Positions 18,425-56,288 of a stretch of 64,000 bases of DNA are shown piece after piece. Location of the stretch: assembly GCA_000999095.1 (NCBI GenBank), contig LCFP01000005.1, forward strand, positions 36,945 through 100,944, in the 5' to 3' direction. The DNA comes from Candidatus Gottesmanbacteria bacterium GW2011_GWA2_43_14. Lineage in GTDB: Bacteria; Patescibacteriota; Microgenomatia; 2-02-FULL-39-11. Below the pieces are notes generated by a model. The model had not been told where the DNA came from and searched no databases. It saw only the letters and a program-made list of their open reading frames with translations. A program made the position numbers and the translations under genes. Each line of letters starts with the position of its first letter. The stretch's first letter is position 1.

Positions 18425-18508
18425 TGTTTATTGCCTAAATCTGATTATAAGTGGTAGGATTGGCTGGTAAATAATCGCGCCAATCAGTATAAAGTATAAA
18501 AAATATTT

Positions 18509-20883: not shown

Positions 20884-20890
20884 AAGAGGT

Positions 20891-22552: not shown

Positions 22553-22561
22553 AAGAACTAT

Positions 22562-25131: not shown

Positions 25132-25190
25132 TTTGAATTTAAAAATTGCACTAGTGAGAGTAATAAACTATATTAGTTGAATCTTTAATA

Positions 25191-25856: not shown

Positions 25857-25862
25857 GCAATA

Positions 25863-26570
25863 ATGAAGAAAATGTCAGTCTCCATTATTATTCCGGCTTA
25901 CAACGAAGAAAAAAATCTCAACTCTGCTGTAAAAGGAGCTTTATGGGCGGTTAAGGATACAGTTTCTGATTATGAGTTGATTATAGTGGACGATGGTTCA
26001 GTTGACAGAACCCATTGGGTGGCTAATAAGTTTGCCCGTAAAAACCGTAAAATTAAAGTTATCCATCACATTAAAAATATAGGTTTTGGTAGTACGTTTA
26101 AAGACGGGATTAGAAACGCATGCAAGGATTATCTAGTCGGTTTTCCCGGCGATTATGATACTTCTGAAAAATCCTTAAGGGATTTGATTAAGAAAGCAAG
26201 TTCTGCTGATTTAATAATGACATATAATCCTGACATGAGCACAAGAACCTGGGCGAGGAGACTCTTCTCTAAAAGTTTCATAATGATGATGAATCAACTA
26301 TTTGGTTTAAGACTTAAATACTACAATGGTTCTTTTATCTGTAAAACTAAATTGCTGAAAAATTTAAAACTTGTCTCAGGAGGGTTTGCCATTTATGCTG
26401 AGGCAAAAGTCAGGCTTTTACATAATGGTCTAAGTTATGAAGAAATACCTTTTAAATATCTTGGCCGAAAATTCGGAAAATCAAAGGCCGTTTCAATCAA
26501 TAGTGTTCTTCAGACTTTAGAAACAATGTTTATCCTAATCAATGATATTAAATTAAAAAAAGATAAATGA
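25863..26570 (+). CDS. GT2 glycosyltransferase, DPM1/GtrB-like
   Basis: MSVSIIIPAYNEEKNL, LIIVDDGSVDRT and GFPGDYD motifs. Confidence 0.8.
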   Translation: MKKMSVSIIIPAYNEEKNLNSAVKGALWAVKDTVSDYELIIVDDGSVDRTHWVANKFARKNRKIKVIHHIKNIGFGSTFKDGIRNACKDYLVGFPGDYDTSEKSLRDLIKKASSADLIMTYNPDMSTRTWARRLFSKSFIMMMNQLFGLRLKYYNGSFICKTKLLKNLKLVSGGFAIYAEAKVRLLHNGLSYEEIPFKYLGRKFGKSKAVSINSVLQTLETMFILINDIKLKKDK

Positions 26571-27052
26571 TTGAAATTCTATTAGTGATAATCATTTATC
26601 TTTGTGCCTCATTTATTCATATCATCAAATACCGCCGTCAGAAAGCGATCAAGATTGGGATTATTAATACTTATGACATATTCCTTCTGTTTCTTCCGGT
26701 ACTAGTGATCACATTTCAGTTTATACCCGTCAGGTGGCCTTTAAGTTCTGTATTTTTATATCTGTTGTTGTCTGGTGTGCATTTTATTTTTTTTACCTCC
26801 CCTTATTTGGGAGATGAGGGACCATCGGCAAAAATTTATTTTTTAATAAAAAAGCAGGGAGAGATGAATTTCAAATCATTGATAGCTAATTTTTCCGACG
26901 AAGAACTGATTATAAAAAGAATAAGGAATCTTGAGAATTCCAAGCTAATCTTGAAGAAAAAAACACTTTTTAAAACAACTGCCAAAGGCCAGCTGTTATC
27001 GGGATTATTTAATTCATACAGGCAATTATTAAGCTGGGACACAGGAGGTTGA
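26567..27052 (+). CDS. Small membrane protein (2-3 TM plus basic C-terminal tail); tandem paralog 1
   Basis: 161-aa hydrophobic N-terminus. ATGA-coupled to the GT2 upstream and to 27049 downstream. Confidence 0.4.
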   Translation: MIEILLVIIIYLCASFIHIIKYRRQKAIKIGIINTYDIFLLFLPVLVITFQFIPVRWPLSSVFLYLLLSGVHFIFFTSPYLGDEGPSAKIYFLIKKQGEMNFKSLIANFSDEELIIKRIRNLENSKLILKKKTLFKTTAKGQLLSGLFNSYRQLLSWDTGG

Positions 27053-27576
27053 TGGTTAGCGATATAACAATTTTTCTTATTGCTGTTATTAGCACTCTCT
27101 CCTTCGTCTTTTTCCACTTGTTTTTTTTCCGGTTTATCGATAAAAGGAAAATTCTAAAATGGCTAGTAAGACTCTTTTTCCTGGGTATTGCGGTTTCAAT
27201 ATCTATTTTTAATTTTATAGTTTCCGGTCCGGTTACATATTCAAAAATTGAAGCTCAATTGATAATTCTGATGATGTATTCGCTGATGTCGCTGGCCTAT
27301 TCTTTGGCTGTTTTCGGCATTACGGCAACATCCTTAAGGATAAGAATATTAACATTTATCAATAACAATTCCCAAGGGGTAAATCTCAAGCAGATTTTGA
27401 AAAAATACAACCGTCGGGTAATTTTGAGAAACAGGCTGGAAAGATTCTCCTCGTCGGGAGAGCTAGTTAAGGTAAATGGCAAGTATCGGATTAGAAAAAA
27501 ATTTTCCTTATTTCTCCTGCCGGCTTCATTTTTCCGGCTGATTTTTATTCTGTACGGGAGGAAACCTTCTTATTGA
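27049..27576 (+). CDS. Small membrane protein (3-4 TM plus basic C-terminal tail); tandem paralog 2
   Basis: 175 aa with the same architecture as 26567..27052, including a similar C-terminal ...RLE..S.G.L.K.NGKY... segment. Confidence 0.4.
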   Translation: MMVSDITIFLIAVISTLSFVFFHLFFFRFIDKRKILKWLVRLFFLGIAVSISIFNFIVSGPVTYSKIEAQLIILMMYSLMSLAYSLAVFGITATSLRIRILTFINNNSQGVNLKQILKKYNRRVILRNRLERFSSSGELVKVNGKYRIRKKFSLFLLPASFFRLIFILYGRKPSY

Positions 27577-28181
27577 ATATGGTTATCGGTATTGATCTGG
27601 ACAATACAATTATCAGTTACGACCGGGTATTCATAAACGCTGCACAAACCCTTAAAATGCCTGTTGGCGGGGAGAACAAGATAAAGCTTAGAGATAATCT
27701 CAGGCAAATGGAAAAAGGAGAGCAGCTTTGGCAGAAGCTGCAAAAAGTAGTTTACGGCTTCCGGTACCTGGAAGCTGAGATAATGCCCGGTTTTGAGGAA
27801 TTTATGTCAGCTGTCAAGGCAGGCGGCCATCAAATCTATGTGGTCAGCCATAAAACAAAATATCTGTTCGGAGACCGGAAAATCAACTTGCAGCAGAATA
27901 TGGAAGATTATTTAAACAAAAAGGGTTTATTGGACAAGCCTTATAATCTGGACGGGGAAAATATTTTTTTTGAGGAATCGCGAAATCTGAAACTTGAAAG
28001 GATCAAAAAGTTAAAATGTGATTATTTTATAGATGACCTGCCGGAAGTATTGACCGCTGAAAATTTTCCGGGAAAAACAGAAAGGATTCTATTAAGTGAT
28101 GAATCTTTGCCCGGTTTGCCGGAGAATGTGGCCGTTTTAAAAGATTGGTATGCAGTCAAAAATTACTTTTTCCGTAAATAA
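27573..28181 (+). CDS. HAD-superfamily hydrolase/phosphatase
   Basis: IGIDLDNTII (DxDxT motif I) in a 202-aa ORF. Confidence 0.6.
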   Translation: MNMVIGIDLDNTIISYDRVFINAAQTLKMPVGGENKIKLRDNLRQMEKGEQLWQKLQKVVYGFRYLEAEIMPGFEEFMSAVKAGGHQIYVVSHKTKYLFGDRKINLQQNMEDYLNKKGLLDKPYNLDGENIFFEESRNLKLERIKKLKCDYFIDDLPEVLTAENFPGKTERILLSDESLPGLPENVAVLKDWYAVKNYFFRK

Positions 28182-29130
28182 GCTATTCTTCTCGGCCGGA
28201 CTTGATCAGGTTTTGAAATCGGATGAGGTAAAGGGCGGGGCCAACAGCCGTACATTGAAAGTTACTACGGATTCATCCGTCTATTTTTTGAAAATCTACC
28301 CTCAGAGCTTGGACGGTAGAAAGAGGTTAAAAAGGGAATACCAAGCTGTAAAATTTTTTAATAGTGCCGGTATAGACAGGGTGCCGGCGGCAGTTTATGC
28401 CGATTATGCGATACCCGCCGGAATTTACAGTTTTATTCCTGGTGACAGGGTAAATAATAATAATACGGAAATTGATGTAAAGGAGGCAATTGAGTTTATT
28501 TCAGGATTAAAGAAAGCATCCGGACTCAAATCGGCAGTTGATCTGCCTGATGCGTCCGAAGCCTGTTTTTCGGTCAGGGATGTCCTCGGTAATATAAAAA
28601 TAAGAAGGAACAGATTAGGGAAAATAAATCACCCGCACCTTAAGAAATTCCTGACGGAAAGATTCGACTTGGCTTTTGTGGAAATAACAGACAAGATTGT
28701 TGATTCGGAGTGTGCCGAAAAAATTTTAAGCCCTTCTGACTTCGGCTTCCATAATGCGATCAGGGGAGAGGATGGCCGGCTATATTTCATTGACATGGAG
28801 CATTTCGGTTGGGATGATCCGGTAAAATTGCTGTCTGATTTTTTATTGCATCCGGAAATGAAGCTTTCCGGCAAACTGAAAGAAAGCTTTCTGAGGCAAG
28901 CAAAACCTAGTTTTAAAACGGAAACTTTTGAGAGGCTGAAGATTGTTTATCCGTTGTTTGCCCTTAAATGGTCGCTTATAATGCTCAATGAGTTTACCCG
29001 TGAAGGCAGGCTTCGCCGTACACTGGCTCAAAAGTCTCCTGATGAAAGAGGCCAGTTAAAAAAGGCAGGGAAGATGCTGGAAAAAGCCTTGTCTGCCGGA
29101 CGGCGTTTTCCTTTCGCCTCAATATTATGA
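28150..29130 (+). CDS. Aminoglycoside-phosphotransferase/choline-kinase-fold small-molecule kinase
   Basis: Brenner-type HNAIRGEDGRLYFIDMEH catalytic loop and DFGF... motif. Confidence 0.6.
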   Translation: MQSKITFSVNKLFFSAGLDQVLKSDEVKGGANSRTLKVTTDSSVYFLKIYPQSLDGRKRLKREYQAVKFFNSAGIDRVPAAVYADYAIPAGIYSFIPGDRVNNNNTEIDVKEAIEFISGLKKASGLKSAVDLPDASEACFSVRDVLGNIKIRRNRLGKINHPHLKKFLTERFDLAFVEITDKIVDSECAEKILSPSDFGFHNAIRGEDGRLYFIDMEHFGWDDPVKLLSDFLLHPEMKLSGKLKESFLRQAKPSFKTETFERLKIVYPLFALKWSLIMLNEFTREGRLRRTLAQKSPDERGQLKKAGKMLEKALSAGRRFPFASIL

Positions 29131-29930
29131 ATAAAAGATCGAAAGACGTAAGAAGAACTGTTCTTGATATGCTTGCCTCGTCCAAACGCGGGCATCTCGG
29201 TTCGGCCTTTTCCATCACGGAAATTCTGCTGGTTTTGTATGACAGGATATTAAAATACAGACCCGACGAGCCGGAATGGCCCAATCGAGACCGTTTTATA
29301 CTCAGTAAAGGTCAGGGATGCCTTTCTTATTATGCTATTTTGGCTGAAAAAGGCTTTTTTCCTGAAAAAAAGCTAGTGACTTTTTGCCGTCTGGATACCT
29401 ATTTGGGCGGACATCCGGAAAAAAATATCCCCGGGGTGGAAATATCAACCGGCAGCCTGGGCCACGGTTTAGCGGTTGCCGTCGGCATGGCTTTAGCAGC
29501 CAAATTGGACAGGAAGAAGCACAGGGTTTTTGTGCTTATCGGCGACGGCGAATCAAACGAAGGGTCAGTTTGGGAAGCCGCTCTTTATGCTGCGAAACAC
29601 CGTCTCGACAACCTGACGGTTCTGGTTGATTACAACAAAATGCAGTCCTGGGGGCCGACCAGGGAAATCCTGGATCTGGAGCCCCTTGCGGATAAATGGC
29701 GGGCATTCGGTTTTGCCGTCAGGGAAGCTGACGGACACGATACCAACGGGATATACCGTTCTTTGCATAAATTGCCTTTTAAAAAAAATAAGCCGAATCT
29801 TTTGATTTGCCATACGGTTAAAGGAAAGGGCATTAAAAGTTGCGAGAATAATCCCGAATGGCATCACCGCCGGGGATTAGAAGGGAAGATAATGAATGAT
29901 TTATACCGGGGATTGGAGGAATACAGATGA
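29127..29930 (+). CDS. Transketolase, N-terminal (TPP-binding) subunit
   Basis: GHLGSAFSITEILLVLYD and GDGESNEGSVWEA motifs; 267 aa, the split-transketolase form. Confidence 0.85.
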   Translation: MNKRSKDVRRTVLDMLASSKRGHLGSAFSITEILLVLYDRILKYRPDEPEWPNRDRFILSKGQGCLSYYAILAEKGFFPEKKLVTFCRLDTYLGGHPEKNIPGVEISTGSLGHGLAVAVGMALAAKLDRKKHRVFVLIGDGESNEGSVWEAALYAAKHRLDNLTVLVDYNKMQSWGPTREILDLEPLADKWRAFGFAVREADGHDTNGIYRSLHKLPFKKNKPNLLICHTVKGKGIKSCENNPEWHHRRGLEGKIMNDLYRGLEEYR

Positions 29931-30844
29931 GGAAAATGAGTCTGGAGATGGTTTACCGGCTTGCAAAAAAGGACAGGCGCGTCTTTTTTATCGGTTCCGA
30001 TCTTGGTTTTGGCACCCTTTTGCAATTTGAGAAAGAGCTGCCAGGGCAGTTTTTAAAAGAAGGCGTCAGCGAAGCTTATATTATCGGTCTTGCCGCAGGT
30101 TTGGCCCTTGAAGGCAAAATCGTTTATATCAATACCATTGCCACTTTTCTCACACGGCGCTGTTTCGAGCAGATTGTGGTTGATCTGGCCCTTCATAGAG
30201 CTAAAGTCAGATTAATCGGCAGCGGCGGCGGTTTGGTTTATGCGCCTTTGGGACCGACGCATCTGGCCATCGAAGATATCGCCATCATGCGGGCCATTCC
30301 CAACATGACGGTTATCGCCTGCGCCGACAGCCGGGAAATGGAAAAAATGATGTTAAAAACGGTTGACTGGCCCGGCCCGATTTACATCAGGCTGGCAAAA
30401 GGCAGTGATCCTCTTGTTACCCGCGGCGGTTTCACAATCGGCAGGGCATACGTTTATGCCCGGGGCAAAGATGTGCTTTTGGTGACAACCGGTATTACTT
30501 TGCAGCTGGCCCTCGAGGCTAAGGAAATATTGGGCAAGAAAAATGTCAAAGCAGGCATCCTGCATGTGCCCACCTTGAAACCCCTGGACAAAAAAACCAT
30601 AATAAAGACCGTCAGGGCCTATCCGGCAGTAATTTCCGTCGAGGAGCATTCATTAATCGGAGGACTGGGATCGGGTATTGCCGAAATTATCAGTGAAGCT
30701 GATTTTATCGGCAGAAAACTATTCAGAAGAATTGCATTACCTGATGAATTTCCGGAAGGCTACGGTTCACAAAAAGAGCAGCTTCTGGATAAGAGGATTA
30801 CAGTTGCAGAAATCGTTAAGACTGCGGAAAAGTTGCTGAAATGA
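29927..30844 (+). CDS. Transketolase, C-terminal (pyrimidine-binding/C-terminal domain) subunit
   Basis: 305 aa, ATGA-coupled to the N-terminal subunit; pyrimidine-binding-domain-like sequence. Confidence 0.85.
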   Translation: MRKMSLEMVYRLAKKDRRVFFIGSDLGFGTLLQFEKELPGQFLKEGVSEAYIIGLAAGLALEGKIVYINTIATFLTRRCFEQIVVDLALHRAKVRLIGSGGGLVYAPLGPTHLAIEDIAIMRAIPNMTVIACADSREMEKMMLKTVDWPGPIYIRLAKGSDPLVTRGGFTIGRAYVYARGKDVLLVTTGITLQLALEAKEILGKKNVKAGILHVPTLKPLDKKTIIKTVRAYPAVISVEEHSLIGGLGSGIAEIISEADFIGRKLFRRIALPDEFPEGYGSQKEQLLDKRITVAEIVKTAEKLLK

Positions 30845-31716
30845 CCAAAAAAATACTGATTCTGGGAGGCTCGAGCTTTATCGGCGGGCATTTTCTCAAT
30901 CGCTTGGGAAATCAGGCAACCGGCACCTACAATTCCAGAAAAATTCCCGGAGGCATAAAATTTGATGCAGTCAGACAAAATTTGTCCCAGGTAATCAAGA
31001 ATCCTCAGGAGTTTACCGCTGCCGTAATACTTTTGGGAGATACCCATCCTGATTCCTGCGCCAAAGATAAAAAACGATCCGAATTGCTCAATGTTAAAAG
31101 TATCAAAGAAATAGTCAGAACACTGAATCAATGGCAGTTGCCGCTGATTTTTACTTCAACGGAGTTTGTCTACGACGGCAAAAAAGGAAACTATACGGAA
31201 AAGGAGGTGCCCCGCCCGATCTTAACTTACGGTAAGCAGAAAGTGGCAGTGGAAAAATTTATCCAAAAAATTTGCCCTCAACATATAATTGTCAGGTTTG
31301 GTAAAGTCTACGGATCGGAAAGGGATGACGGCACTCTCTTTACTGATTGGATAAATCAGCTCAAGACGGAAAAAAGCATCAGGGTGGCGGCTGACCAGAT
31401 TTTCAGTCCGGTTTATGTCGAGGATGTTGTCCGGGCAATATTAAAATTGTTGGAAAAAAAAGCCTGGGGCTTATACAATTTGGGAAATGAAAGTGGTTTT
31501 AGCCGTTTACAGCTTTTGAAAATGCTGATAAGCAAAATGAATGACAAACAGGCCGACGGTGTTAAAATTACCGCCTGCAGCATTGATGATTTCCCATTGC
31601 TTGAGAAAAGACCGAAGAATGTTTCTTTAAACACAAATAAAATCAGGAGAATCACAGGAATAAATATCCGTCCTGTCGGTCAGGTGTGTGAATTAATTGT
31701 AAATAAGTTGCGTTAA
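30841..31716 (+). CDS. NAD(P)-dependent sugar-nucleotide reductase/epimerase (RmlD-like SDR)
   Basis: ILILGGSSFIGGHF Rossmann motif and YGKQK catalytic YxxxK; 291 aa. Confidence 0.6.
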   Translation: MTKKILILGGSSFIGGHFLNRLGNQATGTYNSRKIPGGIKFDAVRQNLSQVIKNPQEFTAAVILLGDTHPDSCAKDKKRSELLNVKSIKEIVRTLNQWQLPLIFTSTEFVYDGKKGNYTEKEVPRPILTYGKQKVAVEKFIQKICPQHIIVRFGKVYGSERDDGTLFTDWINQLKTEKSIRVAADQIFSPVYVEDVVRAILKLLEKKAWGLYNLGNESGFSRLQLLKMLISKMNDKQADGVKITACSIDDFPLLEKRPKNVSLNTNKIRRITGINIRPVGQVCELIVNKLR

Positions 31717-31717
31717 G

Positions 31718-32263
31718 ATGATTCCGTTTAAAAGCATAAAAGTAAATCATGACAAGCTGGGCAGAAGCCTGACGTATATAGCTGTAGCAAAAAATCCGCT
31801 GCTGTCCGGGGTAACTATTCAGGAGATGCTCAAGCTCTCACAGAGAAAAAACAATTGCGATCTCAGAATTTGCCTTCATCGCAATACCGATGAGCATCTT
31901 CACCAGATGATTATTTTGCACCACAAGGGGATATACAGAAGGCCGCAGAAGCATATTTATCGCGATGAAGCGTACCAGATAATTGCGGGCAGGATGGTTT
32001 TATTCCTCTTTGACGCAAAAGGAAACGTAAACAATGCGGAAATCTTAGCTAAAAATGGTAATTTTATTTGCCGTATTGGCAGAGGTTTTTGGCATCTGAC
32101 CATTCCCTTGACAGCTTATGTTATATTTCAGGAGATAAAATCAGGTAAATTCAACCGCAGTCTGGATGCGGTTTATCCGTCCTGGGCTCCGGCAGGTGAT
32201 AATCAAGCTGAAAACAAAGTTTATTACCAAAAATTATTAAAGAGAGTAATAAAAACAGGATGA
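31718..32263 (+). CDS. Cupin-like protein (WbuC-like, polysaccharide-cluster associated); function unknown
   Basis: 181-aa ORF with His-rich beta-strand motifs (HRNTDEHLHQMIILHHKG). Assignment is tentative. Confidence 0.35.
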   Translation: MIPFKSIKVNHDKLGRSLTYIAVAKNPLLSGVTIQEMLKLSQRKNNCDLRICLHRNTDEHLHQMIILHHKGIYRRPQKHIYRDEAYQIIAGRMVLFLFDAKGNVNNAEILAKNGNFICRIGRGFWHLTIPLTAYVIFQEIKSGKFNRSLDAVYPSWAPAGDNQAENKVYYQKLLKRVIKTG

Positions 32264-32913
32264 TCATAAGCATAATTACGCCGCTGCATAAAAGGACCAA
32301 ACGGGACTATCTGGGCAGAATGCAGGATGACAAAGTCCATTGCATGAAGGTTGCCAAAAAATACGGCCGGGATTACTGGGACGGGGACAGAAGGTACGGC
32401 TACGGCGGATATAAATATGACGGCCGCTGGTCGGTGGTGGCAGACAAACTTATCAAAAAGTATAAACTGACGAATAAATCAAAAATTCTGGACGTCGGCT
32501 GCGGCAAAGGTTTTCTTCTTTATGAAATTAAAAAACTGTTGCCCGGGGCAAGTGTTGCCGGATTCGATATATCACGTTACGGATTGAAAAACAGCAAAAA
32601 AGAAATCAGGCAGTATTTACATTACGGCCGGGCTGAAGGCAAATATCCGTATAAAAACAGGGAATTTGACCTGGTAATTTCCATAACTGCGCTGCATAAT
32701 CTGACTTTACCTAAACTGTCACGGGCTTTGGCGGAAATTGAGAGGGTGGGAAGACAGAAATACCTGGCTGTCGAAAGTTACCGCAATGAAAAAGAGCTCT
32801 TCAATCTGGAGTGCTGGGCTCTGACCTGCGAAGCATTTTTCGATAAGGAAAGCTGGATATGGGTACTTAAGCATTTCGGTTATACAGGGGACTTTGAATT
32901 TATCTATTTTTGA
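32260..32913 (+). CDS. Class I SAM-dependent methyltransferase
   Basis: ILDVGCGKGFLLYE (motif I) and DLVISITALHNL. Confidence 0.65.
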   Translation: MIISIITPLHKRTKRDYLGRMQDDKVHCMKVAKKYGRDYWDGDRRYGYGGYKYDGRWSVVADKLIKKYKLTNKSKILDVGCGKGFLLYEIKKLLPGASVAGFDISRYGLKNSKKEIRQYLHYGRAEGKYPYKNREFDLVISITALHNLTLPKLSRALAEIERVGRQKYLAVESYRNEKELFNLECWALTCEAFFDKESWIWVLKHFGYTGDFEFIYF

Positions 32914-33944
32914 ATGATATGAAAGCGGCCATTTTAGTCAAGCAAAAAGCGCCTCTGGAAATCGGGGAAATAGAGCTTCCCGGGTTTCTTGAATACGGCC
33001 AGGTGCTTGTCAGGGTTATCTTCAGCTCCATCTGCGGTGCCCAGATCAATGAAATTGACGGCACAAAAGGAGAAGATAAATTCCTGCCGCATCTTCTGGG
33101 TCATGAAGGCAGCGGAGTGGTCGAAGATACCGGAAGCGGGGTCACCAGGGTAAAAAAAGGCGACCGGGTGATCATGCATTGGCGCCAAGGATCCGGTATC
33201 CAGTCGCCAACACCCAGTTACCTGTGGGGAGGAAAGAAAGTAAATGCCGGCTGGGTGACCACTTTCAATGAATATGCCGTTGTCTCCGAAAACCGTCTGA
33301 CACCTGTTGCGGAAGATACTGATTTAAAAACAGCTGTTCTTTACGGCTGCGCTCTGACGACGGGCTTTGGTGTGGTTCATCATGATTCAAAATTAAAAAG
33401 CGGCGAATCGGCGGTAATTTTCGGGGCCGGGGGCGCCGGGTGCGGCATTATTATGATGGCCAAACTGGTAAATGCCAATCCGATTGTGGCTGTTGATATC
33501 AATAAATTCAAGCTGGGAAAAGCTTCCGCATACGGAGCTACCCATACCTTTATAAACTCTTCCCGGATCAGGCAGGATCTGGAAAAAATCATAGGCAGGC
33601 AGGGAGCTGACGTAACCATTGACACGACCGGCATAAACTCCATCCGCGAGCTGGCCTATGAATCTGCATCTTCCGCCGGCCGCACAATTCTGGTGGGTGT
33701 ACCCAAAAAAGGGGAGAAGATGGCAATTGATTCATTTCCTTTGCATTTCGATAAAGTCCTGACGGGCTCATTCGGCGGCGATGTCAATCCGGGACTGGTG
33801 ATACCCAAACTTATGAATCTGCAAAAACTGGGTATTTATAACCCCCAGGGCATGATTACCAAGACCTATCCTTTGGCTAAAGTCAATGAAGCCATTTCCG
33901 AAGTAAGGAACGGCGATGTCATCCGCGTGGCCATAAGACTATGA
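32910..33944 (+). CDS. Zinc-dependent alcohol/sugar dehydrogenase (MDR family)
   Basis: GHEGSGVVEDTG zinc-ligand motif and IFGAGGAGCG NAD-binding motif. Confidence 0.8.
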   Translation: MNDMKAAILVKQKAPLEIGEIELPGFLEYGQVLVRVIFSSICGAQINEIDGTKGEDKFLPHLLGHEGSGVVEDTGSGVTRVKKGDRVIMHWRQGSGIQSPTPSYLWGGKKVNAGWVTTFNEYAVVSENRLTPVAEDTDLKTAVLYGCALTTGFGVVHHDSKLKSGESAVIFGAGGAGCGIIMMAKLVNANPIVAVDINKFKLGKASAYGATHTFINSSRIRQDLEKIIGRQGADVTIDTTGINSIRELAYESASSAGRTILVGVPKKGEKMAIDSFPLHFDKVLTGSFGGDVNPGLVIPKLMNLQKLGIYNPQGMITKTYPLAKVNEAISEVRNGDVIRVAIRL

Positions 33945-33957
33945 GCCTTTTTATATT

Positions 33958-34944
33958 ATGAAATGCATAGTGACCGGCGGGACCGGTTTTATCGGCAGCC
34001 ATTTAGTCAAAAGACTGCTGGTAGACGGGCATACCGTCAGGCTTTTGGACAGCCATAATCCAGGAGAAGATGATTCCGTTCTTTTTAAAAAATACGGCAG
34101 GAAATACCTATTTAAAAAATGTGATATCTCAGATAAAAAGCAGCTTAAACAGTCTTATTTCAGCGGTATCGATTGGGTATTCCACCTGGCCGGCATGTCC
34201 AATATCGTTCCGTCAATTGAACAGCCGGAACTCTACCACAGGATTAATGTTTCCGGTACAGTTTATATCCTTGAAGCATCGCGAAGAGCAGGCATAAAAA
34301 AATTCCTCTATGCCGCTTCGTCTTCCTGTTACGGCATTCCCGATAAATATCCGACTCCGGAATCAGCACCGATCCGACCCCAATACCCGTATGCCCTGAC
34401 CAAGTATCTGGGAGAAGTTTATGCATTGCACTATGCAGCTGTGTATAAACTTCCGGTTGTTTCTTTGCGTCTCTTTAATGTCTACGGGCCGAAAGTGCGC
34501 ACCTACGGCACTTATGGTCCGGTCATCTCCATTTTTCTGGCGCAGAAAATGAACGGTAAACCGATGACGGTTGTGGGGAACGGCAGGCAAACCAGAGATT
34601 TTACCTATGTTTCGGATGTGACGGAAGCATTTTTGAAAGCAGCCCAATCAAAAATAACTGCCGGTTTTTTCAATGTCGGCAGCGGCGGGAGTTATTCCAT
34701 AAATCAGATGGTGAAAATAATCGGCGGGGAAGTCGTTTATATTCCCAAAAGGCCGGGGGAACCGGACAGTACTTATGCCGATATCACTAAAATCAAAAAT
34801 GCGCTCAATTGGCAGCCGAAAGTCACCTTTTCTCAAGGTATGAAGTTGGTTTTGGAAAACAGCGCTTACTGGAAGTCTGCCCCCGTCTGGACGCCCAAGT
34901 CCATCGAAAAAGCCACCCGCGGCTGGTTTAAATACCTCTCGTAA
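33958..34944 (+). CDS. NAD-dependent epimerase/dehydratase (extended SDR; UDP-sugar 4-epimerase/decarboxylase-like)
   Basis: IVTGGTGFIGSHLV and YALTKYLGE (YxxxK) motifs. Confidence 0.8.
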   Translation: MKCIVTGGTGFIGSHLVKRLLVDGHTVRLLDSHNPGEDDSVLFKKYGRKYLFKKCDISDKKQLKQSYFSGIDWVFHLAGMSNIVPSIEQPELYHRINVSGTVYILEASRRAGIKKFLYAASSSCYGIPDKYPTPESAPIRPQYPYALTKYLGEVYALHYAAVYKLPVVSLRLFNVYGPKVRTYGTYGPVISIFLAQKMNGKPMTVVGNGRQTRDFTYVSDVTEAFLKAAQSKITAGFFNVGSGGSYSINQMVKIIGGEVVYIPKRPGEPDSTYADITKIKNALNWQPKVTFSQGMKLVLENSAYWKSAPVWTPKSIEKATRGWFKYLS

Positions 34945-34991
34945 CACCTACGAGGAGTCAAAGTCGTTGCTTTGCCACCTCCTAGGAGTTA

Positions 34992-36071
34992 CTAATTAGA
35001 TGTCGTAAAGTCTTCTTCGGCCAGGTAACCCAGGGGAATATATGTAGCCAGGATTGTCGCGTCATTTGATTTAAGCGACATCGTGTCCTCAACAAGTTTC
35101 ACTCCCTGTTGCCTTACTTCCAGCAAGTATTTGCTGTCCTTATCTATCAGTTTTCCCTGTTCGTCATGAAGACGGGCATGCTGGTGGGGATAGATGACCT
35201 CGTCAGGCCGGAAAACAGCCATCAACCTGCCGAAATTATCGATGACTGTTTTCCGTTCATAGGTTAGAGGTGAGATCCGGCTGTCCAGATGATGGATGCG
35301 CCAATTGGCTTCGGCATGGCCAACCATGACTACGGTTTTGCTTGCCTTTTTAGCTTCAGAAACAGCATTTAAGCTGTCACGGATGAATTGTTCATTGATT
35401 TCTTCAGAACGCAGAAGAGTAATGTAAGGAAAAAGAAGATGCACCGAGGATTTTGATTGGAGAAGAGAAGGCCTGTTGATAAAAGGGTATCCCCGGGATT
35501 TAAAAAAAGCCTGAGTATCAAAAACATCAGGAATGTCATTACCGGCAACAGCCCTGACTCCGCTTATTTCCGGATTGTCCCAATTGCCTTCCAGTATACA
35601 GATTTTGGTTTGGGGATTTTTGATTTTTTTTATGATTTTCAGCAGGCGTTCCGCATGGGGTTTCAGAGTTGACAGCAGTTCCCAGCGCTTGGCTTGAGGG
35701 AGAGTAGCCGCCCAATCGCCGAAATACGCATATTTCCGATAGACGCTGTCTTTGTTTGACTCTTTATCATCGTAGAAGTGCTTCTTCAGCTTTTCGATTT
35801 CCGGTGAGCCGCTGATGTCGCCTGTGAAAATCAGATAATCAGGCGGATTTTCGGCGACCTGCTCCAACCGGTTATAAATTGTCTCATTCCCGCCATGAAG
35901 ACAGCCGACATAAATAAACCGTTCCGGAAAAACTTCTGTCTCCGGTGAAGGTTTGGTGACCACATGCGCTTTATGCCGGAAGCCAACCAGAGGGCCTATG
36001 AACGATGAGTGCCTGTCGGGCTTGTCCGGAGTTAACCAGCCTGAAAATTTCTTAGGGTTGTTTGTCCCCAT
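34992..36071 (-). CDS. Calcineurin-like metallophosphoesterase
   Basis: VGCLHG, FTGDISG and ILEGNWD (GNH[DE]-like) motifs. Confidence 0.7.
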   Translation of the reverse strand: MGTNNPKKFSGWLTPDKPDRHSSFIGPLVGFRHKAHVVTKPSPETEVFPERFIYVGCLHGGNETIYNRLEQVAENPPDYLIFTGDISGSPEIEKLKKHFYDDKESNKDSVYRKYAYFGDWAATLPQAKRWELLSTLKPHAERLLKIIKKIKNPQTKICILEGNWDNPEISGVRAVAGNDIPDVFDTQAFFKSRGYPFINRPSLLQSKSSVHLLFPYITLLRSEEINEQFIRDSLNAVSEAKKASKTVVMVGHAEANWRIHHLDSRISPLTYERKTVIDNFGRLMAVFRPDEVIYPHQHARLHDEQGKLIDKDSKYLLEVRQQGVKLVEDTMSLKSNDATILATYIPLGYLAEEDFTTSN

Positions 36072-36080
36072 TTAAAAAAT

Positions 36081-36473
36081 CTACCACACTCTTTTAAGAC
36101 CTGACAATCGGTAGATGTCGAAGCCTTTGTCTTTTGACAGGAGAGTAAAGTTGCCGGAAATTGCCTGCCAAGCGAGCATCAAATCAAAGGGATCTTTATT
36201 TTTTATCCTTGGGAGTTTATAAAAAGTTGCGGCCGTTTCTGAGTCTAAATCCAAAACTGTAAAACCGGTTTTTATTGACGATTCGCGAATCTCATCCGGT
36301 TTCACATTTTGAAGATTCAACTTACCGATCGTATATTTTAAAGAAATTTCCCAAAAAGATACCACGCTTATCCACGATGTATTATCCAGAATTATTTTTT
36401 TTACCTTTAGGGAGAGTTTTTCAGGCGATACCAGAGCCCAGATGAGGGTATGAGTATCCAGCAGATAATTCAT
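36081..36473 (-). CDS. vapC: PIN-domain toxin (VapC)
   Basis: MNYLLDTHTLIWAL N-terminus; 4-nt overlap with the upstream antitoxin. Confidence 0.8.
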   Translation of the reverse strand: MNYLLDTHTLIWALVSPEKLSLKVKKIILDNTSWISVVSFWEISLKYTIGKLNLQNVKPDEIRESSIKTGFTVLDLDSETAATFYKLPRIKNKDPFDLMLAWQAISGNFTLLSKDKGFDIYRLSGLKRVW

Positions 36474-36709
36474 AACTTGAGAAATTCATCAACAGTCATT
36501 TTGAAGTCTTTGGCGAATTCGACTGAGACTTTTCCTTTCAAAATTCCCAGTTGTACCTTTTTCTTTTTCTGGTAATCCTTATAAGGAATCATGACTCCTA
36601 TCTTTTCTTTTTTTTTGCCGTAAGAAACTACTGTTTCTTTTCCCTGAAGCAGAGACTCAACAACTTCGGAAAATTTGGCTTTGAATTCGCCGACAGATAA
36701 AACTTTCAT
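36470..36709 (-). CDS. vapB: Antitoxin (Phd/YefM- or VapB-type) paired with the PIN toxin
   Basis: 79-aa ORF immediately upstream of and overlapping the PIN gene. Confidence 0.55.
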   Translation of the reverse strand: MKVLSVGEFKAKFSEVVESLLQGKETVVSYGKKKEKIGVMIPYKDYQKKKKVQLGILKGKVSVEFAKDFKMTVDEFLKL

Positions 36710-36729
36710 GCAATTATTCTAATATTATC

Positions 36730-38328
36730 TTGTCAAGTTGTCAAGATAGAAAGGACTTGAATGGAAAGAAAGAAGTAGTTATATTACAGGTCATGAGCAG
36801 GGCAGGCAAGATAAAACGGATCAATGAATTGGCTAAGATTGCCCTTAACCTCAGGAAAACCGGAAAGAAAATAGTCCATTGCCACGGAGTCTTTGATCTT
36901 CTCCATCCGGGTCATATCAGACATCTGGAAAGCGCTAAAAAAAACGGGGATGTTTTGGTGGTGACTGTTACGGCTGATGCTTACGTGACCAAGGGTCCGG
37001 GCAGGCCGATTTTTAACCATAATTTACGGGCAGAAGTATTGTCAGCCCTGGAACAGATCGATTATGTATCAATTGTCGAGTCTGATTCTGCCGTCCCAGC
37101 CATCAGAAAGATAAAACCCGACTTTTATGTCAAAGGACCGGATTACCGGAAACGCCGGAATATAAAAGATTTGCCGCAAAAACTGGCGGATGAGGAAAAA
37201 GCGGTAAAAGCGGCCGGGGGCAAGCTTATTTTTTCCCATGATGATATCATTTACAGCTCATCCAAATTGATCAACCAGTACCTGGATGTCTTTCCTCCCA
37301 AAACCAGGCATTATTTGGAAACAATCGGCCGGAAATATACCTCTGATGATATTGCTGGAAAACTCTTAAAGCTGAAACCGCTGAAAGTTTTGATCATCGG
37401 GGATGCCATCATCGACCAGTATGTTTACTGTCTTCCCCTGGGAAAATCGTCCAAAGAACCGATTATGGTCCACCGTCATATTACTGAAGAATCCTATTTG
37501 GGCGGCTCTTTGGCAGCTGCCAATCATATGAGCTCTTTAAGCGGCAACGTGGAAATATTGAGCGTATTAGGCTCCAAAAATTCCTTTGAAAATTTCATCG
37601 GCAAAAATTTAAATCACACCGTTAAAAGACAGTTCTATTTTTGGGAAGACAGGGAAACCATAGTCAAGCGGCGTTTCCTGGACGCCTTTACCAAGCAGAA
37701 ACTTTTCCAGATTTCCTATCTGGGGGAGGATGATATTCCGAAAGTTGTCGAGGATAAAATTATGAATTATCTCAGGAAAAACCTGAATAGTTTCGACCTG
37801 GTGGTTGTTTATGATTTCGGTCACGGACTGTTTACCCCTAAAATCGTTAAATATCTATGCTCCAAAGCACCCTTCCTTGCTCTAAACGTTCAGGCCAACA
37901 GCGCCAATTACGGATTCAATATTATTACCAAATACTCCCGGGCCGATTATATCTGCATCGACGAGCAGGAAATCAGACTGGCCACCCATAAAAAGCACGA
38001 TGATTTAAGGCAACTGATAAGAAAGATTTATAAGAAAATGAAGTGCAGAAATATGATCATTACCCGCGGTCCATACGGCAGCGACGGTTATTTCCGCGGT
38101 AAAGGATTTTTGAACAGCCCGGCTTTGACCGATAAAATTGTCGACAGGGTCGGGGCTGGAGATGCTTTGTTCGCCGTTACCGCTCCCTGCATGGCGAAAG
38201 GATTGGAAAACGACCTGACCGCTTTTATCGGCAATGTGGCAGGCGCTTTGCAGATTCAGACAGTCGGGAATAAGAAACCGGTAGAATTTGCCGAGATGAT
38301 AAAATTCGTCAATAGGTTGCTGAAATGA
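36730..38328 (+). CDS. Bifunctional sugar-phosphate nucleotidyltransferase (HxGH cytidylyltransferase fold, N-terminal) plus PfkB-family sugar kinase (C-terminal); HldE-like with reversed domain order
   Basis: N-terminal HCHGVFDLLHPGHIRHLESAKKNGDVLVVTVTADAYV matches the RfaE-II/HldE adenylyltransferase domain. C-terminal DRVGAGDALFAV matches the PfkB anion-hole motif. Confidence 0.75.
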   Translation: MSSCQDRKDLNGKKEVVILQVMSRAGKIKRINELAKIALNLRKTGKKIVHCHGVFDLLHPGHIRHLESAKKNGDVLVVTVTADAYVTKGPGRPIFNHNLRAEVLSALEQIDYVSIVESDSAVPAIRKIKPDFYVKGPDYRKRRNIKDLPQKLADEEKAVKAAGGKLIFSHDDIIYSSSKLINQYLDVFPPKTRHYLETIGRKYTSDDIAGKLLKLKPLKVLIIGDAIIDQYVYCLPLGKSSKEPIMVHRHITEESYLGGSLAAANHMSSLSGNVEILSVLGSKNSFENFIGKNLNHTVKRQFYFWEDRETIVKRRFLDAFTKQKLFQISYLGEDDIPKVVEDKIMNYLRKNLNSFDLVVVYDFGHGLFTPKIVKYLCSKAPFLALNVQANSANYGFNIITKYSRADYICIDEQEIRLATHKKHDDLRQLIRKIYKKMKCRNMIITRGPYGSDGYFRGKGFLNSPALTDKIVDRVGAGDALFAVTAPCMAKGLENDLTAFIGNVAGALQIQTVGNKKPVEFAEMIKFVNRLLK

Positions 38329-39323
38329 TGAACCAAAGCATAAAAAATGTCCTGGTGACCGGGGGTGCGGGTTACGTAGGGGCAGTGCTTGTGCCTAAAT
38401 TATTAAAGGAAAGTTATAAAGTAAAAGTCCTGGATTTGTTTATCTACGGCAGAAATGTTTTGCCAAAACATAAAAATCTGATTGAGATAGTAGGGGATAT
38501 CAGGGACAGAAAGTTATTACAAAAAGAGCTTAAGGGAGTGGACGGTCTCATCCATTTGGCCGCCATCTCCAACGACCCGAGTTTTGACCTCGACCCCCGC
38601 TTGGGTAAATCAGTTAACTATAAGGCCAATAAACTGCTTACTGACCTTGCGGAAAAGGCCGGAGTAAAAAGATTCGTCTTCGTTTCAACTTCCTCCGTTT
38701 ACGGTATCAAAAAGGAAAAAAACGTGACAGAGGATTTGCCGCTTGAGCCTTTGACCGATTATTCCAAATACAAAGCCCTGTCGGAAAAATATGTGCTCAA
38801 AAAAAACAGCGGTGATTTTACCGTCCTGGCGATCCGGCCGGCGACCGTCTGCGGCTTCTCGCCCAGATTAAGGCTTGATTTGAGCGTCAATATGCTTACC
38901 GTTCAGGCTTTGGTCAATAAAAAAATTACGGTTTTCGGGGGCAGGCAGCTCCGTCCCAATATCCATATAGAAGACATAACCGATTTATACGTTGAATGCC
39001 TGAAATATCCCAAGACTCTTGTCGGAGGCCAGGTGTTCAATGCCGGATATGAGAATCTGTCCGTATCTTCAATTGCCCGTCTGGTCAAAAAAGTCCTGGC
39101 TGATCCGGACATTAAGATTACCGTAACAAAGTCCGCTGACAACCGTTCCTACCATATCAGTTCCGAAAAGATAGCCCGTATCCTCGGTTTCAGGCCGAAA
39201 CATACCGTTGAAGAAGCGATTTCGGATCTGGTTAATGCATTCCGGTCGGGACTGATGGAAAATCCGTTGGACAATGAAATGTATTACAATCTTAAATTGA
39301 TGAAAAAAATTAAATTAAACTGA
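38325..39323 (+). CDS. NAD-dependent epimerase/dehydratase (extended SDR)
   Basis: VLVTGGAGYVGAVLV and YSKYK motifs. Confidence 0.75.
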   Translation: MMNQSIKNVLVTGGAGYVGAVLVPKLLKESYKVKVLDLFIYGRNVLPKHKNLIEIVGDIRDRKLLQKELKGVDGLIHLAAISNDPSFDLDPRLGKSVNYKANKLLTDLAEKAGVKRFVFVSTSSVYGIKKEKNVTEDLPLEPLTDYSKYKALSEKYVLKKNSGDFTVLAIRPATVCGFSPRLRLDLSVNMLTVQALVNKKITVFGGRQLRPNIHIEDITDLYVECLKYPKTLVGGQVFNAGYENLSVSSIARLVKKVLADPDIKITVTKSADNRSYHISSEKIARILGFRPKHTVEEAISDLVNAFRSGLMENPLDNEMYYNLKLMKKIKLN

Positions 39324-39940
39324 TGGCTGATTCTGTCAAAAAAACCGTAGACCGGATCATCGGGAATTATATTTCGGAGTTGAAGCAGGCTTTGGACAGC
39401 CTTGACAGGGCTAGGATTCATAAGGCAGTCGGGATGATCCTGTCGGCTTATATAAACAACCGTAAAGTTTTTATCATGGGCAACGGCGGCAGCGCCGCCA
39501 ATGCCTCCCACTTTGCCTGCGATTTGTCCAAGAACACTTTGGAAAGAGTCGATGATAATAAGGAGAAGCGCTTTAAAGTTTATTCGCTGACCGATAATAC
39601 AGCCCTTTTGACGGCATTTGCCAATGATTTTTCCTTCGAAGACGTTTTCCTGCAGCAACTGAGGAACTTAATCGGGGCCAACGATGTCCTGATTGTTCTA
39701 TCAGGCAGCGGGCAGAGCAAAAATCTGATCAAAGCCGTAACATACGCCAAAAAACGCAGAGCCAAAATCATCGGCATACTCGGCTTTGTAACGGGCGGAA
39801 CCCTGGGCAAACTGGCAGATTGCCCCATCCTCATTCAGAGTAAAGCGTATGGCCCCTGTGAGGATATCCAACTGGTTTTAGACCATATAATAACCACATC
39901 CCTGTCAGTCATGAAAAAAAACCATGCAAAGAAAAAATAA
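39323..39940 (+). CDS. gmhA: Phosphoheptose (sedoheptulose-7-phosphate) isomerase, SIS domain
   Basis: GNGGSAANASHFACDL is a near-exact GmhA signature. Confidence 0.85.
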   Translation: MADSVKKTVDRIIGNYISELKQALDSLDRARIHKAVGMILSAYINNRKVFIMGNGGSAANASHFACDLSKNTLERVDDNKEKRFKVYSLTDNTALLTAFANDFSFEDVFLQQLRNLIGANDVLIVLSGSGQSKNLIKAVTYAKKRRAKIIGILGFVTGGTLGKLADCPILIQSKAYGPCEDIQLVLDHIITTSLSVMKKNHAKKK

Positions 39941-40922
39941 ACCATCATTTTATCACGGCAAAAATATCCTGATTACCGGCGGAGCAGGTTTTATCGGTTC
40001 CAGTCTGGCAATCAGATTGGCTGATGAAGGAGCCGAGCAGGTTTTAGTAGATGCCCTGATCCCCGGTTATGGAGGCAATCTTTTCAACTTAAATCCGGTA
40101 AAGGACCTGGTAAAAATCGTCAAAACAGACATCCGCAACCGGGAGAAAATGAACGGACTGGTCAAAGGCAGGGACATTATTTTTAACCTGGCAGGCACTC
40201 TTTCCCATGTCGACAGTATGACTGACCCGATGACTGATTTGGAAATTAACTGCCGGGCACAGCTGTCTTTCCTGGAATCAGTCAGGCATTTCAACCCGAC
40301 AACCAGAATCATCTATGCAGGGACCAGAAACCAGTACGGTAAAGCGCGGTATTTGCCTGTAGACGAAGACCATCCCCAGGAGCCGACCGATATCAACGGC
40401 ATAAACTCAATCGCCGCGGAAAAATACCACCTCATGTATACCCGGGTATACGGTATCAAGAGCGTATCCTTACGCATGAGCAATATTTACGGTCCGAGAC
40501 ACCAGATGAAGCATCCCCGCCAGGGCGTTTTAAATTATTTCCTCAGGCAAATCATGGACGGAAAGACAGTCCTGCTTTACGGTTCAGGCCAACAGGTGCG
40601 TGACGTAAATTACATTGACGATGTGGTTGAGGCTTTATATCTCGTTGGTCTCAGCAAAAACGGCTGGGGGCAGGCATATAATTTGGGCGGTATACCGCTT
40701 TCGCTTAAGGACTTCGTCAAGTACGCCATTGAAATTTACGGCAGGGGCAAAATGAAAGTCGTACCCTATCCGGCTGACAGGAAAAAGATAGAGATAGGGG
40801 ATTATCAGGCAAGTTGGGAGAAAATGCGCAAGACTTACGGCTGGCAGCCTGTTGTTTCTTTAAAGGAGGGGATTGCCAAAACTTTCGCTTACTACTCCAA
40901 ATACAAAAAATATTACTGGTAA
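39924..40922 (+). CDS. NAD-dependent epimerase/dehydratase (extended SDR)
   Basis: ILITGGAGFIGSSLA Rossmann motif; 332 aa. Confidence 0.7.
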   Translation: MQRKNKPSFYHGKNILITGGAGFIGSSLAIRLADEGAEQVLVDALIPGYGGNLFNLNPVKDLVKIVKTDIRNREKMNGLVKGRDIIFNLAGTLSHVDSMTDPMTDLEINCRAQLSFLESVRHFNPTTRIIYAGTRNQYGKARYLPVDEDHPQEPTDINGINSIAAEKYHLMYTRVYGIKSVSLRMSNIYGPRHQMKHPRQGVLNYFLRQIMDGKTVLLYGSGQQVRDVNYIDDVVEALYLVGLSKNGWGQAYNLGGIPLSLKDFVKYAIEIYGRGKMKVVPYPADRKKIEIGDYQASWEKMRKTYGWQPVVSLKEGIAKTFAYYSKYKKYYW

Positions 40923-42226: not shown

Positions 42227-42304
42227 GATTGGTTGTAATATAGCAAAATTACCTGAAGAAAAATATATTTTACTTTGCCCGGGTATCTAGCTAGAATAGC
42301 AATA

Positions 42305-46272: not shown

Positions 46273-46278
46273 TAAATT

Positions 46279-47460: not shown

Positions 47461-47477
47461 GGCAGGGGACATCATAT

Positions 47478-51894: not shown

Positions 51895-51930
51895 AGGAAA
51901 TTGTATAAACTTGTTATAGCACAGAAAGCA

Positions 51931-52614: not shown

Positions 52615-52656
52615 ATTTGCATCCGATGCATTTCCATTGTATATTTCCGATTTAAT

Positions 52657-56252: not shown

Positions 56253-56280
56253 TTGACAGTAAATTGAATCTCAATATACT
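56253..56280 (+). promoter_or_regulatory. Near-consensus sigma70 promoter (TTGACA-16-TATACT) driving the DUF3800 gene; predicts a leaderless or very short-leader mRNA
   Basis: TTGACA at 56253-56258 and TATACT at 56275-56280. The ATG at 56289 is about 9 nt after the -10 element. Confidence 0.4.
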
Positions 56281-56288
56281 TGAAGCAA

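Follow-up and report, generated by a model that had tools for sequence, protein, structure and literature searches.

Activated heptoses are made in the ADP-heptose pathway by the isomerase GmhA, by HldE or by HldA together with HldC, and by the phosphatase GmhB; the kinase step is carried out by an anomeric kinase of the PfkB family and the transfer step by an HxGH nucleotidyltransferase. HldE-type proteins have been described in mono-, di-, and tri-domain architectures, the kinase preceding the transferase in the di-domain form, and a nucleotidyltransferase followed by a kinase is not among them (PMC11573728). Two-carbon units are added to nucleoside diphosphate (NDP)-ketosugars by two established classes of thiamine diphosphate (ThDP) enzymes, the E1 alpha/beta (alpha-KADH2) and the YerE types, giving acyl-branched sugars, and split-gene transketolases have been proposed to transfer a hydroxyacetyl unit to keto sugars in the pathways that lead to miharamycin and amipurimycin; sugar-branching split transketolases have so far been noted only in Streptomyces (PMC12247030). 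Here, we describe an interval (27573-40922) in a stretch of 64,000 nt (the window) of contig LCFP01000005.1 from Candidatus Gottesmanbacteria bacterium GW2011_GWA2_43_14, in which genes for a reverse-order HldE-like fusion protein, a GmhA-like isomerase, and a split transketolase-like enzyme occur together with genes for several short-chain dehydrogenases/reductases (SDRs). We propose that the interval is a copy of a widespread, undescribed operon, which would first produce a nucleotide-activated heptose-type sugar and then extend it by a ThDP enzyme-mediated two-carbon addition, and we put the probability of this reading at about one half.

The initial annotation of the window had regarded the interval as a sugar-nucleotide module related to HldE and GmhA that feeds nearby glycosyltransferases, and this view was supported. 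All open reading frames that it named were found in place, and its domain calls were mostly borne out by Pfam and NCBIfam (APH, transketolase N and Pyr/C, SDRs, Zn-dependent dehydrogenase, CTP_transf_like plus PfkB, and SIS_2). The fusion protein is 100% identical to a public protein of the same bacterium that is annotated as cytidyltransferase. Its gene was present as proposed, but the annotated start is the ATG at 36793, resulting in a protein of 511 aa, and not the TTG at 36730. Pairwise BLASTP alignment with HldE of E. coli K-12 confirmed that the domain order is swapped: residues 21-151 align with residues 336-460 of E. coli HldE (38% identity, E 6e-23), and residues 199-504 align with residues 13-313 (22% identity over 310 residues, E 2e-16). 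Glycerol-3-phosphate cytidylyltransferase and ribokinase had been named as alternative identities of the two halves, but the HldE domain models of NCBIfam score far better in both cases. The nucleotidyltransferase half reaches 113 bits with rfaE_dom_II (TIGR02199) versus 41 bits with the cytidylyltransferase TagD, and the kinase half 137 bits with rfaE_dom_I (TIGR02198) versus 29 bits with ribokinase. HldA (4e84) is the only strong relative of the kinase half among solved structures, with 44.5 bits for the single sequence and 62.8 bits for a profile.

The closest solved structure of the nucleotidyltransferase half in a single-sequence search was HldC, and with the family profile HldC and human ethanolamine-phosphate cytidylyltransferase received the same score of 71.4 bits. 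This tie would fit an enzyme of the TagD/ECT type, i.e., an alcohol-phosphate cytidylyltransferase that produces a CDP-sugar or CDP-alditol via a non-anomeric phosphate for phosphodiester decoration. The Zn-dependent, polyol-type dehydrogenase of the cluster can be counted in its favor, as can the C-terminal motif of the fusion, IIYSSS, which matches neither GCSTT, the form of the E. coli enzyme, nor (F/L)xxGRSTT, the motif of HldC-type enzymes with promiscuous nucleotide usage (PMC11573728). However, such an activity is quite improbable in view of the large difference between the rfaE_dom_II and TagD scores, the covalent fusion to an HldA-like anomeric kinase, the degree of identity to the nucleotidyltransferase half of E. 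coli HldE, and the conservation of a GmhA-like partner. The substrate class of the nucleotidyltransferase half is thus probably HldC-like, as judged from these sequence comparisons.

The reverse-order fusion is a large family, and its arrangement is not peculiar to the present genome. A protein search with the fusion yielded 6778 matches at E <= 1e-5, and the best 120 of these were all about 510 aa long and had the order PF01467 followed by PF00294. A scan of species-representative genomes for the fusion resulted in 80 loci, to which four directly looked-up loci were added (L001 and L002 are near-duplicates). The loci were searched with the window proteins using tblastn, and the counts given in this text refer to the 73 loci that are 9 kb or longer. 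These span at least 15 lineages; the carriers of the 80 scanned loci belong to the Omnitrophota, Planctomycetota, Verrucomicrobiota, Elusimicrobia, Nitrospirales, Dehalococcoidia, Thermodesulfobacteriota, several proteobacterial classes, the Actinobacteria, and archaeal bins. Beside the fusion, a GalE-like SDR was found in 43 loci, the SIS-family isomerase in 42, a second SDR in 39, the split transketolase in 36, a methyltransferase in 29, a DegT-family aminotransferase in 23, the HAD and APH proteins in 18 each, the Zn-dependent dehydrogenase in 15, an RmlD-like SDR in 13, and a WbuC cupin in 8. At least 18 loci share the gene order SDR, fusion, SDR, SIS, HAD, APH, transketolase N subunit, transketolase C subunit, methyltransferase, Zn-dependent dehydrogenase, and WbuC, and the order in the window is a circular permutation of it. 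Both the swapped fusion and the presence of a transketolase in a glycan cluster had been called atypical, but they recur in this widespread operon. No published description of the module was found in a literature search, and the work on branched sugars that was found is hexose-based only.

A ThDP enzyme is a frequent neighbor of the fusion. After queries for E1 alpha/beta and YerE-like enzymes from the loci L001 and L003 had been added, such an enzyme was detected in 56 of the 73 loci, namely, a split transketolase in 36, E1 alpha/beta in 23, and a YerE-like enzyme in 2. The median separation between the fusion gene and the nearest ThDP gene is 2.5 kb, and in 54 of 57 loci the two share the same strand, the latter number being based on a slightly looser coverage threshold. 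The class of ThDP enzyme beside the fusion is interchangeable. One of the carriers, Polynucleobacter sp. AP-Melu-500A-A1 (L061), has been cultured; its locus has the order SDR, SIS, fusion, GT2, a membrane protein of 620 aa, E1 alpha, and E1 beta (both E1 subunits confirmed with Pfam). At L061:3800-17843, the module is bordered by two radical-SAM genes, of which one encodes a SPASM domain, and by genes for a CapE/FnlA-like dehydratase and a UDP-GlcNAc 2-epimerase.

The split transketolase had been assumed to supply sedoheptulose-7-phosphate locally, which in its simplest form means that an ordinary enzyme feeds a standard relay of GmhA, HldE, and GmhB. Several features seem to favor such a role. 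The N subunit matches the N chain of the Carboxydothermus split transketolase with 246 bits, shares about 55% identity with a genuine split transketolase, and has retained the GDG...N motif for ThDP and Mg as well as, apart from residue 63 (see below), the donor-side His residues, and the C subunit keeps the cofactor-activating Glu and His473 (E. coli numbering). In addition, members of the candidate phyla radiation have a reduced central metabolism. However, Ser345 of the human enzyme (Ser385 in E. coli) is replaced by Gly, His461 by Gly, Asp469 by Leu, and Arg520 by Lys. According to established structural work on transketolases, the phosphate of the substrate and the C2 hydroxyl group of an aldose acceptor are bound at these sites. 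Among 33 cluster-linked orthologues of the C subunit, position 461 is Gly in all, position 469 is never Asp but almost always Leu, Asn, or Ala, and position 520 is Lys or Thr in nearly all, whereas the transketolases from Carboxydothermus and human carry the canonical residues at the altered pocket sites. By these residues, the split transketolase of the cluster is not a canonical housekeeping enzyme.

No cluster-linked copy retains the canonical set of residues for phosphate and acceptor binding, which makes supply of sedoheptulose-7-phosphate unlikely. Furthermore, the same transketolase is also present in Planctomycetota, Proteobacteria, and Verrucomicrobiota, which have a normal pentose-phosphate pathway, its presence is not associated with that of the isomerase gene (Fisher p = 0.81), and the E1 and YerE-like enzymes that take its place elsewhere cannot make sedoheptulose-7-phosphate. 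It is linked instead to the methyltransferase (Fisher p = 3.7e-6). We therefore consider a supplier role highly improbable: the loss of the pocket, the lack of association with the isomerase, and the linkage to the methyltransferase and the APH kinase argue against it and for a carboligation in the tailoring of the sugar. Two-carbon transfer onto a carbonyl of an activated heptose appears to be the better reading of the transketolase sequences. The C subunits can be grouped into three sequence subtypes, each with its own gene order, which have the signatures GTEGLHK, RLEG(L/N)HK, and IVEGLHT at seven checked sites; loci of the last-listed subtype (IVEGLHT) are devoid of the APH and HAD genes. 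The groups comprise the loci L009, L011, L014, L016, and L025; the loci L010, L033, L038, L047, L059, L064, and L084; and the loci L012, L013, L017, and others.

The isomerase also deviates from its characterized relatives, and the near-exact GmhA signature that had been ascribed to it was an overstatement. The identity to E. coli GmhA is 29%, and the metal/catalytic set consists of His, Asp, Glu, and His, compared with the canonical residues His61, Glu65, Gln172, and His180 (E. coli numbering). The SIS fold and the GNGGS, ND, and SxSGxSxN motifs are kept, and the best matches among solved structures are all GmhA proteins (E 7e-21). The variant set with Asp at position 65 and Glu at position 172 was found in nearly all of about 50 fusion-linked homologues, only the copy of L048 being canonical; His61 is kept in all of them and His180 in nearly all. 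At the C-terminus, the BLAST alignment with E. coli GmhA is three residues out of register with the family alignments from HMMER and MAFFT, and the latter were adopted because they preserve the spacing between Gln172 and His180. In terms of sequence, the isomerase represents a distinct subfamily of GmhA.

The results for the HAD protein were not uniform. It had been described as a phosphatase with a possible GmhB-like role, and although the match to a hidden Markov model (HMM) is itself weak, the first part of this proposal is backed by motifs I-IV (DxDxT, Ser, Lys, and DD), of which D6, D8, T10, S90, K138, D152, and D153 are invariant in 17 orthologues. Motifs I and II are separated by an insert of about 75 residues, and a profile of the 17 sequences retrieved C1-capped phosphoserine phosphatase and MtnX from the solved structures, at E values of only 0.2-1. 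Single-sequence searches of solved structures with the HAD protein and with the APH kinase gave no significant match. The GmhB-like role is not supported, as the protein has a C1 cap, does not match any GmhB or subfamily IIIA model in Pfam or NCBIfam, and tracks the APH kinase and the transketolase rather than the fusion; in its 18 loci, it is nearly always accompanied by both. GmhB is a capless, histidinol-phosphatase-like HAD protein of subfamily IIIA. Membership in the GmhB family was thus rejected, but the protein could still replace GmhB functionally.

The APH kinase is confined to loci with a split transketolase (18 of 18, Fisher p = 1.7e-7) and never occurs with E1. In one locus, HAD and APH are fused in a single open reading frame of 559 aa (L054:5400-6986), and in another, APH and the transketolase N subunit are contained in one open frame of 751 codons (L076:10242-12053). 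Nevertheless, half of the transketolase loci (18 of 36) lack APH and HAD, among them the full-flank loci L009, L011, L016, and L025, and therefore, both genes are accessory. A unit transferred by a transketolase has a free hydroxyl group, whereas the unit transferred by E1 is an acetyl group, which fits the presence of APH with the former and its absence with the latter. The kinase may thus act on the primary hydroxyl that only the transketolase-derived hydroxyacetyl unit carries.

The close connection of APH and transketolase could, however, also be explained by precursor supply for an unusual higher or modified sugar, similar to the lincomycin octose pathway (LmbR, LmbN, LmbP, LmbK, and LmbO). 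In that pathway, a C-C bond-forming enzyme, a GmhA-like isomerase, an anomeric kinase, a phosphatase, and a nucleotidyltransferase lead to a sugar nucleotide with more than six carbons, as is proposed here; it differs in its transaldolase LmbR, which precedes the activation, in its GHMP kinase LmbP, and in its GDP-type transferase LmbO. Applied to the present operon, a phosphate-blind transketolase would build a non-phosphorylated ketose, APH would phosphorylate it, the variant GmhA would isomerize the product, and the PfkB kinase, the HAD phosphatase, and the nucleotidyltransferase would activate it. Every conserved enzyme would receive a role, the lost phosphate-binding residues would suit unphosphorylated substrates, the HAD-APH and APH-transketolase fusions would be accounted for, and the variant active site of the isomerase could mean a substrate other than sedoheptulose-7-phosphate. 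We nevertheless regard this explanation as unlikely. It is at odds with the transketolase loci that lack APH or HAD (18 of 36, full-length loci included), with the missing association of transketolase and isomerase (p = 0.81), and with the loss of the Asp responsible for binding the acceptor's C2 hydroxyl, which is not expected for an aldose acceptor. Moreover, E1 alpha/beta replaces the transketolase in 23 loci without the kinase, and the 1-deoxy-ketose products would not be isomerizable to aldoses. Lastly, the transketolase genes adjoin the tailoring genes for the methyltransferase and the Zn-dependent dehydrogenase.

The tailoring genes themselves are conserved to different degrees. The methyltransferase is the most conserved of them, with identities mostly of 46-69%, and of 35-43% in a few loci. 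Two methyltransferases had been assigned to the interval; one is indeed located there, but the other lies outside (25191-25856). The Zn-dependent dehydrogenase gene, where present, adjoins the transketolase or the methyltransferase gene. All of the four extended SDRs that had been noted are present. The GalE-like SDR is mostly 49-60% identical to its homologues and is typically encoded directly 5' of the fusion, and the second conserved SDR (46-62% identity) is usually encoded directly 3' of it; the latter has a normal catalytic Ser and YxxxK motif (STSSVYG and YSKYK). The RmlD-like SDR carries the motifs STEFVY and YGKQK, which are of the RmlD type. The fourth SDR has an intact Rossmann motif (GGAGFIGS), but in comparison with GalE and CDP-tyvelose 2-epimerase its catalytic Tyr is replaced by Asn and its Lys by Ser, N-G-I-N-S being found in place of Y-G-x-x-K. 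An orthologue of it beside the fusion was not found with tblastn in any of the 73 loci, and a role as pseudo-enzyme or as non-redox partner is conceivable. The formation of a 6-deoxy-heptose, which had been considered, is unsupported, as none of the SDRs has the acid pair of a dehydratase. This product was rejected; the SDR for which dTDP-glucose dehydratase is the best model is the one without the catalytic Tyr and Lys.

The proposed pathway builds on the homologies, the domain swap, the gene linkage, and the altered transketolase pocket, which are all observed; from these, we infer its substrates and the order of its steps. The GmhA-like isomerase would convert a ketose phosphate, most simply sedoheptulose-7-phosphate, to an aldose phosphate. 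The PfkB half of the fusion would phosphorylate C1, a phosphatase would remove the distal phosphate, and the HldC-like half would form the NDP-sugar. An SDR or the Zn-dependent dehydrogenase would then create a carbonyl, onto which the split transketolase-like enzyme would transfer a hydroxyacetyl unit, leading to a C-branched or a chain-extended C9 sugar. Reduction and methylation would follow, together with phosphate handling of the new side chain where APH and HAD are present, and delivery to the surface could involve the small GT2 protein along with the small membrane proteins and the window's numerous GT-C transferases.

This pathway resembles several described systems, but it differs from each of them. 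The isomerase, the anomeric kinase, and the HxGH nucleotidyltransferase are homologous to those of the ADP-heptose pathway, but in the present case the domain order is reversed, the scores are below the cutoffs, Asp replaces Glu65 and Glu replaces Gln172 in the isomerase, no GmhB-type phosphatase was found, and the genes are part of an operon with SDRs and a ThDP enzyme and are not found in the context of a lipopolysaccharide core. The split transketolases of the miharamycin and amipurimycin clusters likewise have two subunits, are encoded inside a sugar-modification cluster, and are predicted to use a sugar carbonyl as acceptor; those clusters produce secondary metabolites in Streptomyces, whereas the present loci are envelope-glycan loci of many phyla with an HldE-like module. 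YerE and E1 alpha/beta, known from yersiniose, eurekanate, and aldgarose, both replace the transketolase beside the reverse-order fusion (25 loci). Their known substrates are CDP- or TDP-activated 3,6-dideoxy or 2,6-dideoxy 4-keto hexoses that are formed by 4,6-dehydratases, whereas no recognizable 4,6-dehydratase is present here and the scaffold is apparently a heptose.

A number of points weigh against the proposed two-carbon addition to an activated heptose. In vitro, no transketolase has ever been shown to transfer its unit to an NDP-sugar (PMC12247030). The acid pair of 4,6-dehydratases, of either the RmlB (TDE) or the GMD type, is absent from all four SDRs of the window, and no enzyme from which a stable keto or aldehyde sugar would be released was recognized among the window genes. 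The fusion stays below the equivalog cutoffs of NCBIfam (NF008454, 180 versus 521; TIGR02198, 137 versus 345; TIGR02199, 113 versus 181.5), as does the isomerase (98-103 bits versus cutoffs of 209-276); the variant GmhA may use another substrate, and the profile tie of the nucleotidyltransferase half belongs to the same group of arguments. The 77% association of the fusion with a ThDP enzyme stands without a matched control set of canonical hldE loci. Residue 63 of the transketolase N subunit is Gln in the window, but His in all 37 orthologues as well as in the transketolases from human (His77; E. coli His66) and Carboxydothermus. The difference amounts to one base in a metagenome-assembled genome, and it may weaken this copy of the enzyme or be an assembly variant. 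Finally, we know of no glycan structure from any carrier of the operon.

The features of the interval and of its closest surroundings are compiled in Table 1.

Table 1. Features encoded in the interval and next to it (positions in the window)
Feature	Coordinates	Strand	Basis and remarks
Small GT2, ArnC/GtrB-like polyprenyl-phosphate glycosyltransferase type	25863..26570	+	Pfam Glycos_transf_2; outside the interval but associated
Two small hydrophobic proteins, 161 and 175 aa	26567..27576	+	Sequence hydrophobicity
HAD-superfamily phosphatase, unmodelled subfamily, C1 cap	27579..28181	+	Weak HMM match, E 0.005
APH/choline-kinase-fold kinase	28150..29130	+	Pfam APH, 28.9 bits
Transketolase-like subunit N (ThDP diphosphate-binding), 267 aa	29127..29930	+	Transketolase_N
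Transketolase-like subunit C (Pyr and C domains), 305 aa	29927..30844	+	Transket_pyr and Transketolase_C
RmlD-like NDP-4-ketosugar reductase	30841..31716	+	RmlD_sub_bind, 137 bits; TIGR01214, 130 bits (cutoff 224)
WbuC-family cupin	31718..32263	+	TIGR04366, 89 bits (cutoff 42)
Class I S-adenosylmethionine methyltransferase	32260..32913	+	Pfam
Zn-dependent medium-chain dehydrogenase	32910..33944	+	Pfam ADH_N and ADH_zinc_N
GalE/WbpP-like extended SDR, 4-epimerase type	33958..34944	+	180 bits to Thermotoga UDP-glucose 4-epimerase
Metallophosphoesterase	34992-36071	-	Pfam Metallophos
PIN toxin	36081-36473	-	Pfam PIN
Antitoxin, 79 aa	36470-36709	-	Open reading frame
Reverse-order HldE homologue: HldC-like nucleotidyltransferase (~residues 21-160), then HldA-like PfkB kinase (~195-505)	36793..38328	+	Pfam, NCBIfam, BLASTP
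Second conserved extended SDR	38325..39323	+	Pfam Epimerase
GmhA-family sugar-phosphate isomerase, variant subfamily	39323..39940	+	SIS_2
Degenerate extended SDR	39924..40922	+	Rossmann motif intact
DegT-family aminotransferase	42275-43399	+	Pfam/NCBIfam; outside the interval
GNAT and formyltransferase protein	43396-44763	+	Pfam/NCBIfam; outside the interval

Four features of the interval had been missed in the initial annotation, namely, the WbuC cupin, the metallophosphoesterase, the PIN toxin, and the antitoxin. The latter three form a block on the minus strand (34992-36709), which separates the GalE-like SDR from the fusion exactly at a junction that is otherwise conserved, and the block is probably an insertion that does not belong to the pathway. 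A distant metallophosphoesterase (30% identity) is encoded near the transketolase in another Gottesmanbacteria locus, L004.

The surroundings of the interval constitute a large glycan locus with several GT-C proteins of the PMT_2 type, small GT2 enzymes, the DegT aminotransferase, and the GNAT-formyltransferase protein; the latter two are probably involved in further tailoring. A homologue of the small GT2 protein upstream of the interval adjoins the pathway in 18 of the 73 loci. A Pfam search with the two small hydrophobic proteins encoded next to it gave no match, and they are candidate flippase subunits. The loci L003 and L004 share the order of GT2, two small unannotated proteins of the same size, and then sugar genes. 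At the level of protein families only, the window resembles the Arn system for the delivery of 4-amino-4-deoxy-L-arabinose (L-Ara4N), which consists of ArnB, the ArnA formyltransferase, ArnC, ArnE/F, and ArnT: a DegT protein, a protein with a formyltransferase domain, a small GT2 protein, two small membrane proteins, and several GT-C (PMT_2) proteins are encoded.

The regions 16790-25131 and 44779-55135 contain unusually many genes for large membrane proteins, interspersed with small GT2 genes. Several of these membrane proteins match PMT_2 (GT-C), and others of 544, 547, 622, 519, 541, and 542 aa are without any family match. The membrane proteins and GT2 genes suggest extensive glycosylation outside the cytoplasm that depends on polyprenyl-phosphate sugars. 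The G+C content is 0.355-0.369 at 22000-28000, where genes for GT2, GT-C, methyltransferase, and small membrane proteins are located, versus 0.44-0.46 in the sugar-nucleotide genes that follow, and this step may reflect separate origins or the composition of membrane proteins. Towards the 3' end of the window, a protein of 1447 aa (59164-63507, minus strand) has an N-terminal phage-integrase SAM-like domain as its sole recognizable domain, and a DUF3800 protein is encoded nearby (56280-56915). At the 5' end, a Fic domain fused to a MerR-type helix-turn-helix domain (662-1669, minus strand) and a NodU/CmcH-type carbamoyltransferase (2319-4112, minus strand) are encoded.

With somewhat less confidence than for the operon as such, and thus tentatively, we suggest that the reverse-order fusion marks an unrecognized pathway of many phyla, in which an NDP-heptose is the dedicated acceptor for a ThDP-dependent two-carbon ligation and the cluster-linked transketolases are a new functional subfamily. 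If this is true, the products would be C2-branched heptoses or C9 sugars ("nonoses") on the envelopes of bacteria and archaea, most of them uncultured, and the split transketolases of the clusters would have exchanged a pocket for sugar phosphates for a pocket for NDP-sugars. The carboligation on sugars that has been proposed for enzymes of the transketolase type would then have a physiological setting outside of Streptomyces, and the two subunits of 267 and 305 aa would be compact candidate biocatalysts for hydroxyacetyl transfer. The large clade of HldE relatives outside the three described architectures is also relevant for work on NDP-heptoses in innate immunity, and Polynucleobacter, as a cultured carrier, is a practical organism for experiments. 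The operon would thus add a new family of surface sugars, either higher-carbon or branched, together with the enzymes that form them, to lineages with an almost unknown envelope chemistry, including the candidate phyla radiation, the Omnitrophota, the Planctomycetota, and the Nitrospirales.

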